Positions 5,638-63,142 of a stretch of DNA of 64,000 nucleotides are shown piece after piece; within the stretch, counting starts at the first letter, position 1, and each line of letters begins with the position of its first letter. The DNA is taken from positions 106,766 to 170,765 of the forward strand of contig JACQLQ010000001.1 of assembly GCA_016204045.1 (NCBI GenBank). The letters are read 5' to 3'. The stretch comes from Parcubacteria group bacterium. Its GTDB lineage: Bacteria; Patescibacteriota; Minisyncoccia; Phycocordibacterales; UBA2135. Made by a program: the position numbers and the translations under genes. A model generated the notes under the pieces. That model saw only the letters and a program-made list of their open reading frames with translations. It had not been told where the DNA came from and made no database searches.

Positions 5638-5710
5638 AGAGATAACTATAAGTATAACCCGTAACTCGATTCCCGAGTCACCTAGCCGGAAATGGGAAAG
5701 TATTGTTATG

Positions 5711-5781
5711 TGGACTCACCGGGAATCGAACCCGGGCCTCGGCAATGCGAATGCCGCGTAATACCACTTTACTATGAGCCC
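5711..5781 (-). tRNA. tRNA-Ala (anticodon CGC)
   Basis: Minus-strand cloverleaf: acceptor gggctca/tgagtcc (one G-U pair), anticodon stem cggca/tgccg with loop ttcgcat (anticodon CGC), T-arm cccgg-gttcgattc-ccggg. The anticodon call is less certain than the tRNA call. Confidence 0.6.
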
Positions 5782-5790
5782 CCCTACCTC

Positions 5791-6014
5791 TAATCGGGGT
5801 GGGCAGACGCTTCGCTATCTCACTCTTTGGAAACCCACGTCCCTATTGCCTGCCAGCATACGCTGGCAACGGCAATTTCGCTTTGCGAATCGGATGAAAA
5901 GCAAAGCAGTTTGCTTTTCATTTCTACTCCGCCCCTCGACGGGCTCGGGGCTGCCTTCCTCCACGGGAAAACTACAGTTTTCCCGACCCCTTTCGTGTTC
6001 GGTTCTGCCCACCC
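5791..6014 (-). ncRNA. tRNA-linked structured RNA element, copy L1 (~224 nt, unknown family)
   Basis: Minus strand. The 5' end ggtgggcagaaccgaac is the reverse complement (16/17) of the T-arm/acceptor 3' region of the upstream tRNA-Pro(CGG). The 3' end tctgcccaccccgatta is an exact 17-nt direct copy of that tRNA's 3' end plus 3-nt trailer. The core shares blocks with copy L2, including a covarying hairpin (gggaaaac/gttttccc here against ggggaaaca/tgtttcccc in L2), gaggaaggcag and gtttccaaagagtgagatagcgaagcgtct. A -10-like tagtatatt lies just upstream. Confidence 0.6.
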
Positions 6015-6064
6015 TCTAAAAATATACTACACAAACAAAAAAGTTTGTTTCGTCATTTTTATAA

Positions 6065-6135
6065 TCGGGGTGGGCAGAATCGAACTGCCGCTACGGAGTC
6101 CCGAACCCCGCGTACTACCACTATACTACACCCCG
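6065..6135 (-). tRNA. tRNA-Pro (anticodon CGG)
   Basis: Acceptor cggggtg/caccccg, anticodon stem cgggg/ctccg with loop ttcggga (anticodon CGG, G37), T-arm ggcag-ttcgatt-ctgcc. Confidence 0.75.
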
Positions 6136-6136
6136 A

Positions 6137-14961: not shown

Positions 14962-15057
14962 ATGATTTACAACGACGAAGTAACGAAGGCAGGAGATGTG
15001 GCAACTGAAGGAGCACAAACTGAAGCTCCTGAAGCTACGGAGGCAGAGAACGCCTAA
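14962..15057 (+). CDS. candidate small ORF (31 aa, acidic: MIYNDEVTKAGDVATEGAQTEAPEATEAENA)
   Basis: Preceded by a strong promoter and a ~110-nt hairpin-rich leader, and followed by a strong terminator (cccccgaccagaggtcggggg + T-run). May be a small RNA rather than a coding gene. Confidence 0.3.
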   Translation: MIYNDEVTKAGDVATEGAQTEAPEATEAENA

Positions 15058-15144
15058 CACAAAACACCCCCGACCAGAGGTCGGGGGTGTTTTGTGTTAG
15101 CTGTATGTCGCCTCAAATGTGTGATATATAGTATGACTAAGGAA

Positions 15145-15215
15145 GCGGGATTAGTTAAATGGTATAACATCAGTTTTCCAAACTGAGGTCGGGAGTTCGA
15201 TTCTCCCATCCCGCA
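15145..15215 (+). tRNA. tRNA-Gly (anticodon TCC)
   Basis: Acceptor gcgggat/atcccgc, anticodon stem tcagt/actga with loop tttccaa (anticodon TCC), T-arm gggag-ttcgatt-ctccc. Confidence 0.7.
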
Positions 15216-15270
15216 TTAAATGAAATTTTCGTACCTTTAGGTACCGAAATTTTATCTCATTGGGTATAAT

Positions 15271-15396
15271 GGGAGAATCGAACGGGAAGGGGGTCGGGGA
15301 AACACATGTTTCCCCGTAGAGGAAGGCAGGGCGAAGCCCGTTGGAAAACCGCAGGTTTCCAAAGAGTGAGATAGCGAAGCGTCTCCCATCCCGCAT
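15271..15396 (+). ncRNA. tRNA-linked structured RNA element, copy L2 (~125 nt)
   Basis: Extended -10 tgggtataat sits immediately upstream. The 5' end tgggagaatcgaac is the perfect reverse complement of tRNA-Gly positions ~53-66. The 3' end tctcccatcccgcatcaaatg is a direct copy of the tRNA-Gly 3' end plus trailer (tctcccatcccgcattaaatg). The core is homologous to L1 with a compensatory hairpin. It ends 3-4 nt before the start of the downstream HAD-phosphatase gene. Confidence 0.6.
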
Positions 15397-15399
15397 CAA

Positions 15400-15903
15400 A
15401 TGCAAAAATACGCCTTTTTAGACAGAGATGGAACATTCCTTTGGGAACCAGAGCGTCCCGAGGGTGTCGATCCGCGAGAAACTTTTCCATTGAAATCCAT
15501 GGATGAGTTTAAGTTCATGGAGGGTGCTATTGAGGGCATTCGTAAACTCGCGGATAAGGAATACAAACTCGTTATGGTAACGAACCAAACTTTCCTCGGG
15601 ACACCAAAACATCCCAAAGAAATGTTTGATAAAGTTATGGAAAAAATTGACGAGGAGTTGGCGAAATATACTATCACTTTCGAGTTCAAAATGGTCTGTC
15701 CACACGGACCGGATGAAGGGTGCGATTGTCGAAAACCGCAAATTGGCGGCTTGGAAGATTTTTTACGAGAGCATGAGGTCGATTTCACGCACTCGATCAT
15801 GTTCGGAGACAGAACAACCGACGAGGAGTTCGCAAAAAACATTGGTATACGATTTGTAAAAGTGAAGACAAACGAACACTTTGTTGTTCCGGACGATATT
15901 TAA
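15400..15903 (+). CDS. HAD-superfamily phosphatase, GmhB/histidinol-phosphatase-like (D,D-heptose 1,7-bisphosphate phosphatase family)
   Basis: FLDRDGT (motif I), VTNQ, CDCRKPQ and FGDRTTDEEFAKNIG are the family motifs. Confidence 0.7.
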   Translation: MQKYAFLDRDGTFLWEPERPEGVDPRETFPLKSMDEFKFMEGAIEGIRKLADKEYKLVMVTNQTFLGTPKHPKEMFDKVMEKIDEELAKYTITFEFKMVCPHGPDEGCDCRKPQIGGLEDFLREHEVDFTHSIMFGDRTTDEEFAKNIGIRFVKVKTNEHFVVPDDI

Positions 15904-18143: not shown

Positions 18144-18740
18144 ATGAGTATCTTAATTCCCACAGTTATAGAAAAGTCCCCGTTTGGGGAGCGTGCTTAT
18201 GACATTTACTCGCGCCTCCTTCGTGAGCGCATCGTCTTTTTGGGCGGGCCCATTGACGATCATGTTGCAAATCTAGTGATAGCCCAACTTCTGTTTCTTG
18301 AGTCGGAAGACCCAAAGAAAGATATTAGTCTCTATATCAACTCACCCGGTGGTTCTGTAACTGCAACGCTCGCCATTCACGACACCATGAAGCACATTAA
18401 GCCCGATGTTGGCACAATGTGCATCGGTATCGCCGCATCGGGTGCCTCTGTCATCCTTTCGTCGGGTGCAAAGGGCAAACGCTACATCTTGCCGAATGCG
18501 GAAGTGATGATTCATCAACCGCTTGGGGGTGCCGAGGGACAGGCCTCCGACATCATCATCACCGCGAAGCACATCCTTAGTGTCAAAGAAAACCTGAACA
18601 AAATACTTGCCGAAAACACGGGTCAACCACTTGAGAGGATAGAAAAAGACGTTGACCGCGACTTCTTCATGACCGCAGATGAAGCAAAGAAGTACGGCAT
18701 CGTTGATGAGATATTAAAACCAAAGAATCACAGAAAATAA
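18144..18740 (+). CDS. clpP: ATP-dependent Clp protease proteolytic subunit
   Basis: [11 protein letters not shown] (catalytic Ser) and MIHQP (His). About 198 aa, typical length. Confidence 0.9.
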
Positions 18741-18875
18741 CTAAAAAATCCTCCCAGCGGAGGATTTTTTAGTTATTTACCGGGGGGCTTGCCATTAAGA
18801 ATTTGACATTAACAATTTTCTATTGTAGAGTAGAAACATAGTTCTTCCGGTAGACAAGTACAAGGGGATAACCGA

Positions 18876-23176: not shown

Positions 23177-23305
23177 AGATACTAAGTTAGTTAAATAGGT
23201 TACCAATAATGGATAGCATAAGTGTATCGCGGAGCTCTACCAAATTCAATCCCCAGTCGTTTCAGGCGACTGGGGATTGAATTTGGTAGCTATTTCGTTT
23301 TCTCT

Positions 23306-28717: not shown

Positions 28718-30115
28718 ATGCATTACATGGGGCATGTTGCTGTTTGGGGTTTTGTGCTCACTCTTTTTTTCTTTGCACCCACCTCTCCAGAAGAGCGTTT
28801 AGAGGTTTTCTCTTTTGAAAATCAAAGTAGTTTTAACGTTTTTGCCGCTCTTGGGGATGTGGATGAGCAATTAGATGAGTTAGGAGCGCCGCCTGACCCG
28901 GAGGGACCACCACTTTTAGATGAGCCAGTCATCATAGTCACTAACGAAGACGGTGGATGCCAAGGTTTCTTTGATTGTTTAGGAGATTTTCTTGATGATA
29001 TAGGTGATGCAATATCTGGCCTTTTTGGCGGCGGAGGCGATACTGGTGGAGGTGGTGATGAAGGAAGGGGGTTTGGCGAGGGAGGAGGTACGGGAGCTGC
29101 TCCAACGAGCCCCCAGGGTGTTGCATGGAATGCGCCACAAGTGGGGCGAGGCACAGATGGGTGTCCTTTGGAGGATTGCCACCTTGTTTCGCGGTCATTC
29201 GTCACAGAAACTGGTGATCGCGCGGTTGTGTACTCTGGCTATAATACTAAGGGCGATCTTGTTTATATTACACCCGTTGAGCCCCCCGAAGCGGGGGAGG
29301 CCCCAGGAGGTGACGAACCCTCGTGTATATTCTTTGGTCTCATATGCCCAGATACCGGTACTGAAACTACTACCACGACTACTACCACCACAGATGATGA
29401 CGATGATGATACTAACACCACCACAAATGGCAACGGGACTAACAACACCGTAGACACCGATGGTGATGGAATTAACGACGCTATAGACACCGACGACGAT
29501 GGTGATGGAATTAACGATACTGTAGACACTGACGACGATGGTGACGGGATTGACGACGCCGTGGACACCAATGGTAGGGCCACAAGCGGAACACCCGGAG
29601 GAGGCACTAGTGGCAGTAGCGGTGGATGCAACCCTCTAACACAGGACTGTGACGGTGGTAATACCACGAACGTGAGTGGATGCGACCCAGCAACAGCAGA
29701 TTGTGATGGCGGAATTGCTGGTGGGACATCGTGTGTCTCAAACTACAATGGGAACTGCACAGGGACACCAAATGCATGTGGAATGTCTTATTCTGGACGA
29801 ATCACCTGCACGGGTTCTTGCAACGCGCCAATGCGTCCCAATACCGACTGCCCAAGGCCGACTATCTCATTAAGTGCATCTCCGGATTTTGTCGAGCGAG
29901 GGAATGCGTGCACACTTACGTGGAGTGCGCAAAACGCAACCGAATGTGTAATCACTGGTTTTGGTGTCAATCACACAGGCGGACCCTCTGGTTCCACCCT
30001 GACCCCAGGCCTTGATCGTCAAGAAACGTATACCGCCCGTTGTTTCAATGGCCCCGATGTCTCTGGAACTGCCCAAACCACCTGCCGGCTCAATCCTGAA
30101 TTTGAAGAGATCTAA
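28718..30115 (+). CDS. secreted protein with thrombospondin type-3-like Ca-binding repeats, Thr/Asp-rich linker, Cys-rich domain and PEFEEI tail
   Basis: DTDGDGINDAIDTDDDGDGINDTVDTDDDGDGIDDAVD matches the DxDxDGxxDxxD repeat. A poly-Thr/poly-Asp run and an Ig-like TLTWSAQNATEC...TYTARC domain are present. The C-terminus is NPEFEEI-stop. Confidence 0.55.
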   Translation: MHYMGHVAVWGFVLTLFFFAPTSPEERLEVFSFENQSSFNVFAALGDVDEQLDELGAPPDPEGPPLLDEPVIIVTNEDGGCQGFFDCLGDFLDDIGDAISGLFGGGGDTGGGGDEGRGFGEGGGTGAAPTSPQGVAWNAPQVGRGTDGCPLEDCHLVSRSFVTETGDRAVVYSGYNTKGDLVYITPVEPPEAGEAPGGDEPSCIFFGLICPDTGTETTTTTTTTTDDDDDDTNTTTNGNGTNNTVDTDGDGINDAIDTDDDGDGINDTVDTDDDGDGIDDAVDTNGRATSGTPGGGTSGSSGGCNPLTQDCDGGNTTNVSGCDPATADCDGGIAGGTSCVSNYNGNCTGTPNACGMSYSGRITCTGSCNAPMRPNTDCPRPTISLSASPDFVERGNACTLTWSAQNATECVITGFGVNHTGGPSGSTLTPGLDRQETYTARCFNGPDVSGTAQTTCRLNPEFEEI

Positions 30116-41210: not shown

Positions 41211-41320
41211 CTTTTTAACAAAACACGGTCCGACGATCGTCGGACCGTGTTTTGTTAAGGCGTTGTCTTTGTCTCAAAGATATAGTACCTTTGCCGTAGA
41301 AATAGTCGCGGGAGCTTACT

Positions 41321-62996: not shown

Positions 62997-63142
62997 AACT
63001 CTTTCTTTTGTTTCTAGCATACTCACAAAATCACAAAACCAGGGTCCGGCTATAGCCGGACCCTGGTTTTGTATTGACTTTTACCTAGGCGTCATATAGG
63101 ATACCCTGAAGGCCCGCAAGGGCTCATTTTAACTGATTTGCT

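Follow-up and report, generated by a model that had tools for sequence, protein, structure and literature searches.

A structured stretch of DNA that ends in a copy of the 3' end of a tRNA gene lies between that gene, tRNA-Gly(UCC), and the start codon of a HAD-IIIA family hydrolase gene (here the HAD gene) in a Parcubacteria group bacterium, and the question raised by this locus is what the stretch is and how it came to lie there. It is one of two such stretches, L2 and L1, in a window of 64,000 nucleotides (nt), the whole piece of DNA that was analysed, from contig JACQLQ010000001.1 (assembly GCA_016204045.1, positions 106,766 to 170,765 of the forward strand). A preliminary description, made from the letters without database searches, proposed L2 as a candidate cis-regulatory leader of the HAD mRNA and L1, which abuts tRNA-Ala, as a tRNA precursor leader. 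Our analysis leads to a different answer. L1 and L2 belong to an apparently undescribed family of elements, widespread in Parcubacteria, that measure about 130–300 bp and contain no open reading frame (ORF), and we consider it very likely that the members of this family are insertions into the ends of genes.

The tRNA-Gly(UCC) gene occupies positions 15145–15215 of the plus strand and is followed directly by L2 (15216–15395), the structured part of which extends from about 15269 to 15395. A 15-mer, TCTCCCATCCCGCAT, occurs exactly twice in the window, at 15202–15216 (the tRNA 3' end) and at 15382–15396, where shuffled sequences give an expectation of 0, and the final 14 nt of L2 (TCTCCCATCCCGCA, 15382–15395) are an exact repeat of the tRNA-Gly 3' end. 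The repeat continues imperfectly (TTAAATGAAA at 15216–15225 versus TCAAATGCAA at 15396–15405) and in doing so takes in the HAD ATG at 15400–15402, from which the element is separated by TCAA. That L2 adjoins this start codon, that the duplication includes it, and that L2 directly abuts the HAD gene and leaves it no space for a separate promoter had all been said before, and we confirm them. An antisense copy had been missed: 15269–15283 is the perfect reverse complement of tRNA-Gly 15195–15209, which runs from the T-loop into the acceptor 3' strand. Proceeding 3' from the tRNA one meets an A+T-rich hairpin with a T run, TATAAT, a G-rich structured stretch, TCTCCCATCCCGCA, TCAA and ATG. The parts are as follows.

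15145–15215, plus strand: tRNA-Gly(UCC), host gene of L2 (ARAGORN; Rfam tRNA, 72.1 bits), with T-loop 15196–15202, T-stem 3' strand 15203–15207, acceptor 3' strand 15208–15214 and discriminator 15215
15202–15225, plus strand: copy 1 of the direct repeat (X), the tRNA's working 3' end and 10 nt of trailer (exact 15-mer repeat extending into the trailer)
15222–15253, plus strand: hairpin GAAATTTTCGTACC-TTTA-GGTACCGAAATTTT with a T run at its end (read from the sequence)
15240–15283, plus strand: X', which copies the tRNA 3' region and trailer in antisense, perfect over 15269–15283 and decayed further 5'
15265–15270, plus strand: TATAAT box within decayed X', its last two bases being also the first two of the P1 5' strand
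15269–15276 and 15277–15283, plus strand: 5' strands of helices P1 and P1b (the latter AUCGAAC), within X' (pair counts)
15282–15364, plus strand: conserved core (covariance model R1, 88.6 bits, E 4e-22), made up of J1 GGGAAGGGGGU, P2 15295–15316, J2 UAGAGGAAGGCA, P3 15329–15339, P4 15343–15360 and then AAAG
15366–15381, plus strand: P1b 3' strand GUGAGAU, pairing with AUCGAAC via tandem G.A, and mini-hairpin AGCGAAGCG
15382–15405, plus strand: copy 2 of the direct repeat (X''), with the P1 3' strand at 15382–15389, the remaining tRNA end to 15395 and the trailer including the HAD ATG
15400–15903, plus strand: HAD-IIIA family hydrolase gene, 167 aa (ORF; PF08645, PF13242; named 'HAD-IIIA family hydrolase' by its sources)

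The ATG at 15400 is the true HAD start because the DxDGT motif begins at residue 8, and the gene is a neighbour of L2 and no part of the element. The hairpin at 15222–15253, which is too A+T-rich for our terminator scan (threshold, at least three G-C pairs), looks like a terminator and is the centre of a decayed palindrome X-loop-X'; equivalent hairpins are present at most other loci of the family. A single-sequence minimum-free-energy fold of L2, in which CGGGAAGGGGG pairs with CUCCCAUCCCG, was rejected as unsupported by L1 and the rest of the family.

Similar elements occur well beyond this window. A 20-mer from the 3' block of L2 matched 11 genome contigs, all of them metagenome-assembled genomes of Parcubacteria/Paceibacterota, and each match lies after a tRNA or tmRNA gene and ends in a copy of the 3' end of that very RNA. 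A core pattern taken from the central block matched 116 metagenome contigs, and a profile search yielded 114 distinct copies of the ~85-nt core in Parcubacteria/Paceibacterota DNA. Same-strand tRNA genes (15 species) or tmRNA genes precede 58 of the 114, rpsI precedes 17 and rpmG nine; another 19 have other hosts, among them pyrG and the 5' end of rnhA, and 11 lie too near a contig end to be classified. The subtype represented by L2 was found after at least seven different tRNA species and tmRNA. On its own strand the element has no match in Rfam at the gathering score, nor around L2 at E values up to 10, and the core at 12 further loci gave tRNAs and noise only at E values up to 1. Three patterns had zero matches in a viral collection of 2.9 million contigs, and this is therefore not a phage element in that collection. 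Nothing describing it was found in Rfam 15 or in the searchable literature; the literature search brought up TIGR-Tas, where there is no description of the element, and group I introns are on record in tRNAs of Patescibacteria (PMC13011429).

Most of the loci read or scored share one layout: the gene end X, a short and often terminator-like hairpin, the antisense copy X', the core and the second sense copy X''. The direct and inverted repeat of the host gene end was present at most of the ~85 distinct loci scored, and X' and X'' pair with each other and thereby close the core (helix P1). In well-preserved copies such as L025 and L005 (labels of three digits denote loci of the family) X, the hairpin and X' form one long palindrome, the middle of which has decayed in others. 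Over 48 tRNA loci copy 1 and copy 2 have an identity of 0.8–0.98 across the stretch that starts with the final base of the T-loop and ends with that of the tRNA; it falls to about 0.3, the background value, immediately past the tRNA end.

The core between the arms is almost invariant in sequence and consists of three hairpins joined by purine-rich strands, with the consensus GGRAAGGGGUC, hairpin P2, GUGGAGGAAGGCAG, hairpin P3, GUU, hairpin P4 (GGAAAACC-GUG-GGUUUCC) and AAR. Compensatory changes are seen in P3 and in seven of the nine pairs of P2, where G.U pairs are also present and fix the strand of the fold; this fold fits RNA or single-stranded DNA of the same polarity equally well. In the L2 subtype the antisense T-loop AUCGAAC pairs with GUGAGAU through a tandem G.A, beside a mini-hairpin, GCGAAGC, both pairs of which covary (AAUGAAAUG, AACGAAGUG). 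Helix 2 of this subtype (P1b) is 100% paired with wobble pairs as its sole variants, and 92% of cells in the subtype are paired, compared with 33–51% when the partners are slid. At the block equivalent to 15366–15381 intermediate forms (GGTTCGATAGCGAAGCG and GGTTCGATAACGGAGTG) occur in the family, and since relatives still read GGUUCGAU there, the block is a remodelled T-loop copy.

In several subtypes the closing helix has in its middle a mismatch of 1–3 nt that is constant within each of them (in the window, 15280–15281 with 15368–15369): tandem G.A in the L2 subtype, AU/UA in rpmG and C.U in rpsI. All copies of the rpmG subtype have GCAAUAGG or GAGUAGG in the P1 3' strand in place of the gene's own GCAAAUGG, and that part of copy 2 is therefore derived from the element, with the crossover just 3' of it. 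In a group of tRNA-Glu loci (L042, L068, L071, L102) X' has been lost and X'' is still a perfect copy of the tRNA end. The near-invariant core, the recurrent mid-P1 mismatch and the X'' kept in the tRNA-Glu group suggest that the folded molecule acts in some way beyond marking an old insertion.

Several loci depart from the common layout. At three of the tRNA-Glu/Gln subtype (L016, L114, L124) the tRNA end recurs twice downstream in sense orientation: one copy, degenerate, pairs with X', and 40–50 nt further on lies another that is near-perfect. This arrangement suggests nested or repeated insertions. Tandem units are found at L019/L112/L031/L048 (rpsI, the second unit degenerate) and at L027/L080 (tRNA-Gln, one unit lacking P3). 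In L023, L035, L072 and L101 the core is followed by a tRNA gene in opposite orientation, which begins 16 nt past the motif used in the core search at all but L035, where the distance is greater; these four loci have only a short closing helix and no clear triplication.

Insertion is shown directly at rpmG. The rpmG loci of relatives, fetched with L33 homologues from one occupied locus, include sites that are empty (L137, L138/139 and L140/141: rpmG, trailer and tRNA-Trp, with no element) and sites that are occupied (L096, L126, L110 and L142). From its gene end through the trailer to tRNA-Trp, L137 aligns colinearly with L096 from copy 2 through the trailer to tRNA-Trp, and identity over the latter two is roughly 90%. 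The occupied locus is therefore the empty locus plus ~190 nt inside the coding region, and it follows likewise that the copy now joined to the gene came with the insert, while the copy after the core is the resident original. Empty and occupied sites with a distal repeat colinear to the empty site were found in the rpmG subfamily only. Two of the element-free loci, L137 and L140, have LAGLIDADG endonuclease ORFs a few hundred bases upstream of rpmG.

Codon differences between the two copies point the same way. At rpmG, pyrG and rpsI loci 48 are synonymous and 15 non-synonymous (8 and 0 at L110, 9 and 3 at L025), and most second copies, as read from the sequences, keep the stop codon at the same place, with a few (L018, L014) having lost it. 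Neutral decay of copy 2 would give about 40% synonymous differences, and about 76% are observed; both copies have therefore lived as working gene ends, which is what would be expected if an element-borne end recombined with the resident gene by a single crossover. We rejected an origin in situ by fold-back or from a hairpin-capped break as a general account, since it predicts copies that are identical at first, then neutral decay of copy 2 and so also about 40%; it may have served as the first route by which a new host gene was captured. What is duplicated at L077 is a 5' gene end, that of rnhA (start codon and 18 codons), on the opposite strand from the core, and here too most differences are synonymous. 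This opposite-strand duplicate excludes RNA splicing as a general explanation and fits insertion at the DNA level; the layout also means that the working rnhA must be driven by a promoter inside the element.

L1 tells a similar story on the minus strand, where its arms identify a host other than the one previously assumed. The element spans 5794–6014 (5791–6014 with X'' in full), and its core scores 52.4 bits with the covariance model.

6064–6136, minus strand: tRNA-Pro(CGG), host gene of L1 (ARAGORN, Rfam; repeat of its 3' end)
6014–6004, minus strand: L1 P1 5' strand GGGUGGGCAGA
5998–5927, minus strand: L1 core match
5927–5843, minus strand: 85-nt insertion of three hairpins in the P4 5' strand, followed by block AGAGUGAGAUAGCGAAGCG
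5807–5791, minus strand: L1 X'' TCTGCCCACCCCGATTA
5710–5781, minus strand: tRNA-Ala(CGC), merely the downstream neighbour of L1

The terminal repeat TCTGCCCACCCCGATTA (5791–5807) is a copy of the 3' end of the upstream tRNA-Pro(CGG) at 6062–6078; both arms of L1 match this tRNA, nothing of tRNA-Ala is copied, and two conserved blocks are common to L1 and L2. We take L1 to be an insertion of the same kind as L2, probably in tRNA-Pro(CGG), with tRNA-Ala simply the next gene. The P4 5' strand of L1 holds an 85-nt module of three hairpins (GUAG...AAUAG, 5843–5927, minus strand). A near-identical module sits in the P2 5' strand of locus L116, and because the sequences of P2 and P4 are nearly identical at the point of insertion, the module looks like an insertion within an insertion. 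Searched in full with the covariance model and no filters, the window gave only L1 and L2 as members. Between two tRNA-Pro genes, positions 248–295 repeat part of the 3' half of tRNA-Pro(UGG) (159–206) at 83% identity; this repeat has no conserved core alongside, the covariance model gives only a weak match at 191–241 (E 0.28), and a lost element or an event of another type may have left it as a scar.

We find a full explanation of L1 and L2 as members of a protein-less insertion-element family with a fixed layout, its mode of integration included, somewhat more persuasive than not. By analogy with rpmG, L2 would have entered tRNA-Gly(UCC) at the end of the T-loop, given the tRNA a new 3' end together with the hairpin (15202–15253), and moved the original tRNA end downstream by 180 nt (to 15382–15405), together with a 4-nt spacer and the start codon of the HAD gene. 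The arrangement before insertion would have been tRNA-Gly end, 4 nt and HAD ATG, presumably co-transcribed, and the contact between L2 and the HAD gene would therefore be inherited from that junction. Integration would be of the Campbell type, with one crossover between the chromosomal gene and the copy of its end that the element carries. The likely intermediate is the element as a folded single strand or a small circle, with X and X' paired; enzymes supplied in trans would perform the reaction, and the core would be needed for the integration step or as a stable RNA made afterwards. On the same analogy, the earlier idea that the HAD start region copies the tRNA trailer should probably be turned around, the trailer at 15216–15225 being the copy.

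The HAD mRNA would now have to start in or read through L2, and the two are likely to be co-transcribed. It is plausible that it starts at the 5' edge of L2 and carries the folded RNA as a leader, because the hairpin with its T run (15222–15253) is followed by TATAAT (15265–15270). The decayed X' reads TATAAT where GCGGGAT would be expected, and this box may be a promoter that restored HAD expression downstream of the new hairpin and would serve the RNA of the element as well. It is not the extended -10 promoter that had been proposed: it is preceded by GGG and not by TGn, and a consensus scan gives neither a -35 element nor a full sigma-70 match. A conserved -10 box before P1 was considered as a family feature and dropped; such a box is present in L2 and a few others and absent in many, and several copies follow their tRNA without a hairpin, so a private promoter is no feature of the family.

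That L2 is a dedicated cis-regulatory leader of HAD mRNA, riboswitch-like or processing-dependent, with L1 a leader of the tRNA-Ala precursor, seems to us extremely improbable. The position of L2, ending 4 nt before the ATG with TATAAT at its 5' edge and a T-run hairpin upstream, does favour such a role; however, the core recurs at 114 places where the downstream neighbours are terminators, tRNAs or unrelated genes, many copies being followed by a terminator of their own, and there is neither an expression platform nor a coherent set of downstream genes nor, at the E values given above, a match to any curated riboswitch or leader model. HAD orthologues at 84–86%, 78% and 74% identity have no core upstream (the identical HAD protein is found on just one other contig, where the element is also present), and the arms of L1 copy tRNA-Pro and not tRNA-Ala. 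Tyrosine-integrase elements suggest themselves next, since tRNA repeats that start in the T-loop and tmRNA targets are classic for them, and the tRNA 3'-end repeats seen here begin in the T-loop and tmRNA is also a target. The repeats might then be leftover attL and attR sites of an island or prophage that has lost its cargo, with the core as the arm region of the attachment site. No integrase is near the element at ~120 loci, however, no copy carries cargo, the viral contigs gave no match, the base-pair covariation of the core is strand-specific, and the antisense arm has no counterpart in such sites; we regard this origin as quite improbable. Another proposal is that the element's RNA acts on host RNA, with X' as guide, the core catalytic or protein-recruiting, and X'' a spare 3' segment joined in cis or trans. 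It would account for the order antisense arm, core and sense gene end with stop codon, often with its own terminator, for a copy 2 that stays coding-like or matches the tRNA end up to precisely its final base, even where unpaired in P1, and for a mid-P1 mismatch or internal loop that recurs in several subtypes. We nevertheless think it unlikely, given that the duplicated gene end of L077 is on the strand opposite to the core, that copy 1 is always intact so that splicing is not needed, that the core is three simple hairpins without a match to any ribozyme or intron model (E up to 10 at L2 and up to 1 at 12 loci), and that the empty rpmG sites show the duplication to have arisen by DNA insertion. 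An intron reading, with copy 2 as the true 3' exon, deserved serious thought because copy 2 looks coding, and we rejected it as a general explanation in view of the intact copy 1, L077 and the empty-site alignment.

A stable RNA of benefit to the host, mimicking the tRNA acceptor/T-arm helix and spread by ordinary recombination only, is a comparably unlikely account. It might serve RNase P, RNase Z, the CCA-adding enzyme or tRNA-targeting toxins as decoy or substrate, or act at highly expressed genes as a module that stabilises the 3' end and terminates transcription. The terminal helix does consist of T-stem and acceptor 3' strands paired to one unbroken antisense strand, beyond which the discriminator and the remaining acceptor nucleotides project as a 3' overhang, the hosts are mostly translation genes and the core sequence is very strongly conserved; but tRNA mimicry has no bearing on two further hosts, pyrG and the 5' end of rnhA, and the kept coding-like second copy of a protein gene end is left unexplained. 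The insertion-element explanation that we prefer has difficulties as well. How both arms come to match each new host gene is not explained by it. The rpsI copies share a P2 loop and the rpmG copies a P1 mismatch, and some copies are probably old and vertically inherited; a coding-like copy 2 agrees equally well with a useful RNA of long standing and with a selfish mobile element, and the tRNA-Glu group that has lost X' and kept a perfect X'' is not predicted by a pure insertion-scar view. By our own count the two copies at L096 differ from each other at 8 positions and each differs from the empty L137 at 11. No empty tRNA-Gly/HAD site was found, and insertion of L2 is argued by analogy only; the closest HAD genes either follow a gene for tRNA-Glu, a pyrophosphatase or a SpoU methylase or sit on short contigs, and none is informative. 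Finally, no excised form of the element was seen, and no recombinase, reverse transcriptase or nuclease is linked to it in the flanks of ~120 loci.

The search for linked enzymes was made by clustering ORFs of at least 80 aa from 127 loci, and the recurrent neighbours were rpsI, rplM, rplQ and rpoA. Small ORFs (80–120 aa) resembling GIY-YIG/YhbQ lie within a few kb of the element at seven loci (L030, L060, L065, L076, L078, L080, L094), at variable distance and in either orientation, and the end of a GIY-YIG gene lies upstream of the tRNA in L010; such ORFs may simply be common in these genomes.

Comparison with known systems places the element among familiar things without identifying it with any of them. 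Prophages and genomic islands insert into the 3' ends of tRNA and tmRNA genes by means of tyrosine integrases, and one class crosses over in the T-loop. Like these elements, ours would insert in the 3' part of a gene, supply a replacement end that keeps the gene intact and leave the displaced end as a distal direct repeat, which in tRNAs begins in the T-loop as in the class just mentioned; it differs in its size of ~130–300 bp, the lack of an integrase or any ORF, the folded core, the antisense arm and the lack of matches in viral contigs. Integron attC sites and the attP of CTX-phi, which is used by XerCD, are likewise imperfect hairpins of two inverted copies of the recombining sequence with conserved mismatches in the middle, strand-specific in structure, and recombined by enzymes that the small mobile unit does not encode. 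The stem of our element, however, differs with each host gene, whereas the dif/attC core is fixed, and attC and attP lack an attached three-hairpin core; unlike them, the element has no shown dependence on IntI or Xer. Miniature inverted-repeat transposable elements and insertion sequences have terminal inverted repeats conserved among copies and a short target duplication of fixed length; the inverted arms here are host-derived and different at every host gene, and the duplication varies from 14 to >50 bp.

Among RNAs, the guide of group I introns (P1/P10) and that of engineered trans-splicing ribozymes resemble X' in that an antisense sequence pairs with both the upstream host sequence and a downstream copy, in the order guide, core and 3' segment. 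The element has no catalytic core (P3–P9) and no match to the Rfam model Intron_gpI, its upstream copy is complete and one member is on the opposite strand from its host gene; nor does the host gene show an interruption that would need splicing, the upstream tRNA being complete and upstream ORFs ending in their own stop codons. The tyrT repeats of E. coli (RtT RNA, RF00391) are also units downstream of a tRNA that end in a copy of its 3' terminus, and rtT units are released from the tRNA transcript. Our element has no match to RF00391, and rtT lacks an antisense arm, a conserved core shared with protein-gene hosts and insertion polymorphism. The bridge or seek RNA of IS110 and the omega RNA of IS200/IS605 are, like the core with its arms, structured RNAs of mobile elements that match target or flanking DNA; in our case no recombinase, TnpB or IscB is adjacent, the arms of 8–50 nt pair mutually, and the target is duplicated over 14–55 bp. 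We treat the comparisons with trans-splicing ribozymes and with folded single strands as leads.

Two other kinds of repeat in the window deserve mention. Positions 29420–29569 hold four tandem 39-nt units that code for an Asp/Gly-rich repeat (roughly DTDGDGINDA), probably calcium-binding repeats inside a protein-coding region. Perfect inverted repeats of 20–23 bp with loops of 0–7 nt, one side rich in A and the other in T, lie at 378–418, 15054–15100, 18735–18778, 23237–23289, 41215–41258 and 63033–63072; they look like bidirectional terminators, apparently the house style of this genome.

If the family is what we believe it to be, a common genetic element of Parcubacteria escapes current annotation, having neither an ORF nor an Rfam family, and the ends of tRNA, tmRNA and ribosomal-protein genes in these bacteria need rereading, since pseudo ends, odd terminators and genes that, like HAD, seem to lack a promoter would be its by-products. 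Arms matched to the target, a near-invariant core and the lack of a linked enzyme make the element a candidate for a new mechanism of guided recombination or RNA processing, and it is small enough for direct study in vitro. It is conceivable, if rather unlikely, that the core is the active part of a nucleic-acid-guided mobile element, in which X' would select the gene end and the core would catalyse the exchange or recruit a host enzyme, acting on RNA (3'-end replacement or splicing) or on single-stranded DNA; were this so, the element would be a minimal, protein-less, programmable module for recombination or RNA repair that is native to the reduced genomes of the Candidate Phyla Radiation (CPR). 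The element would also serve as a clean gain-and-loss marker for gene flow among uncultured CPR bacteria.

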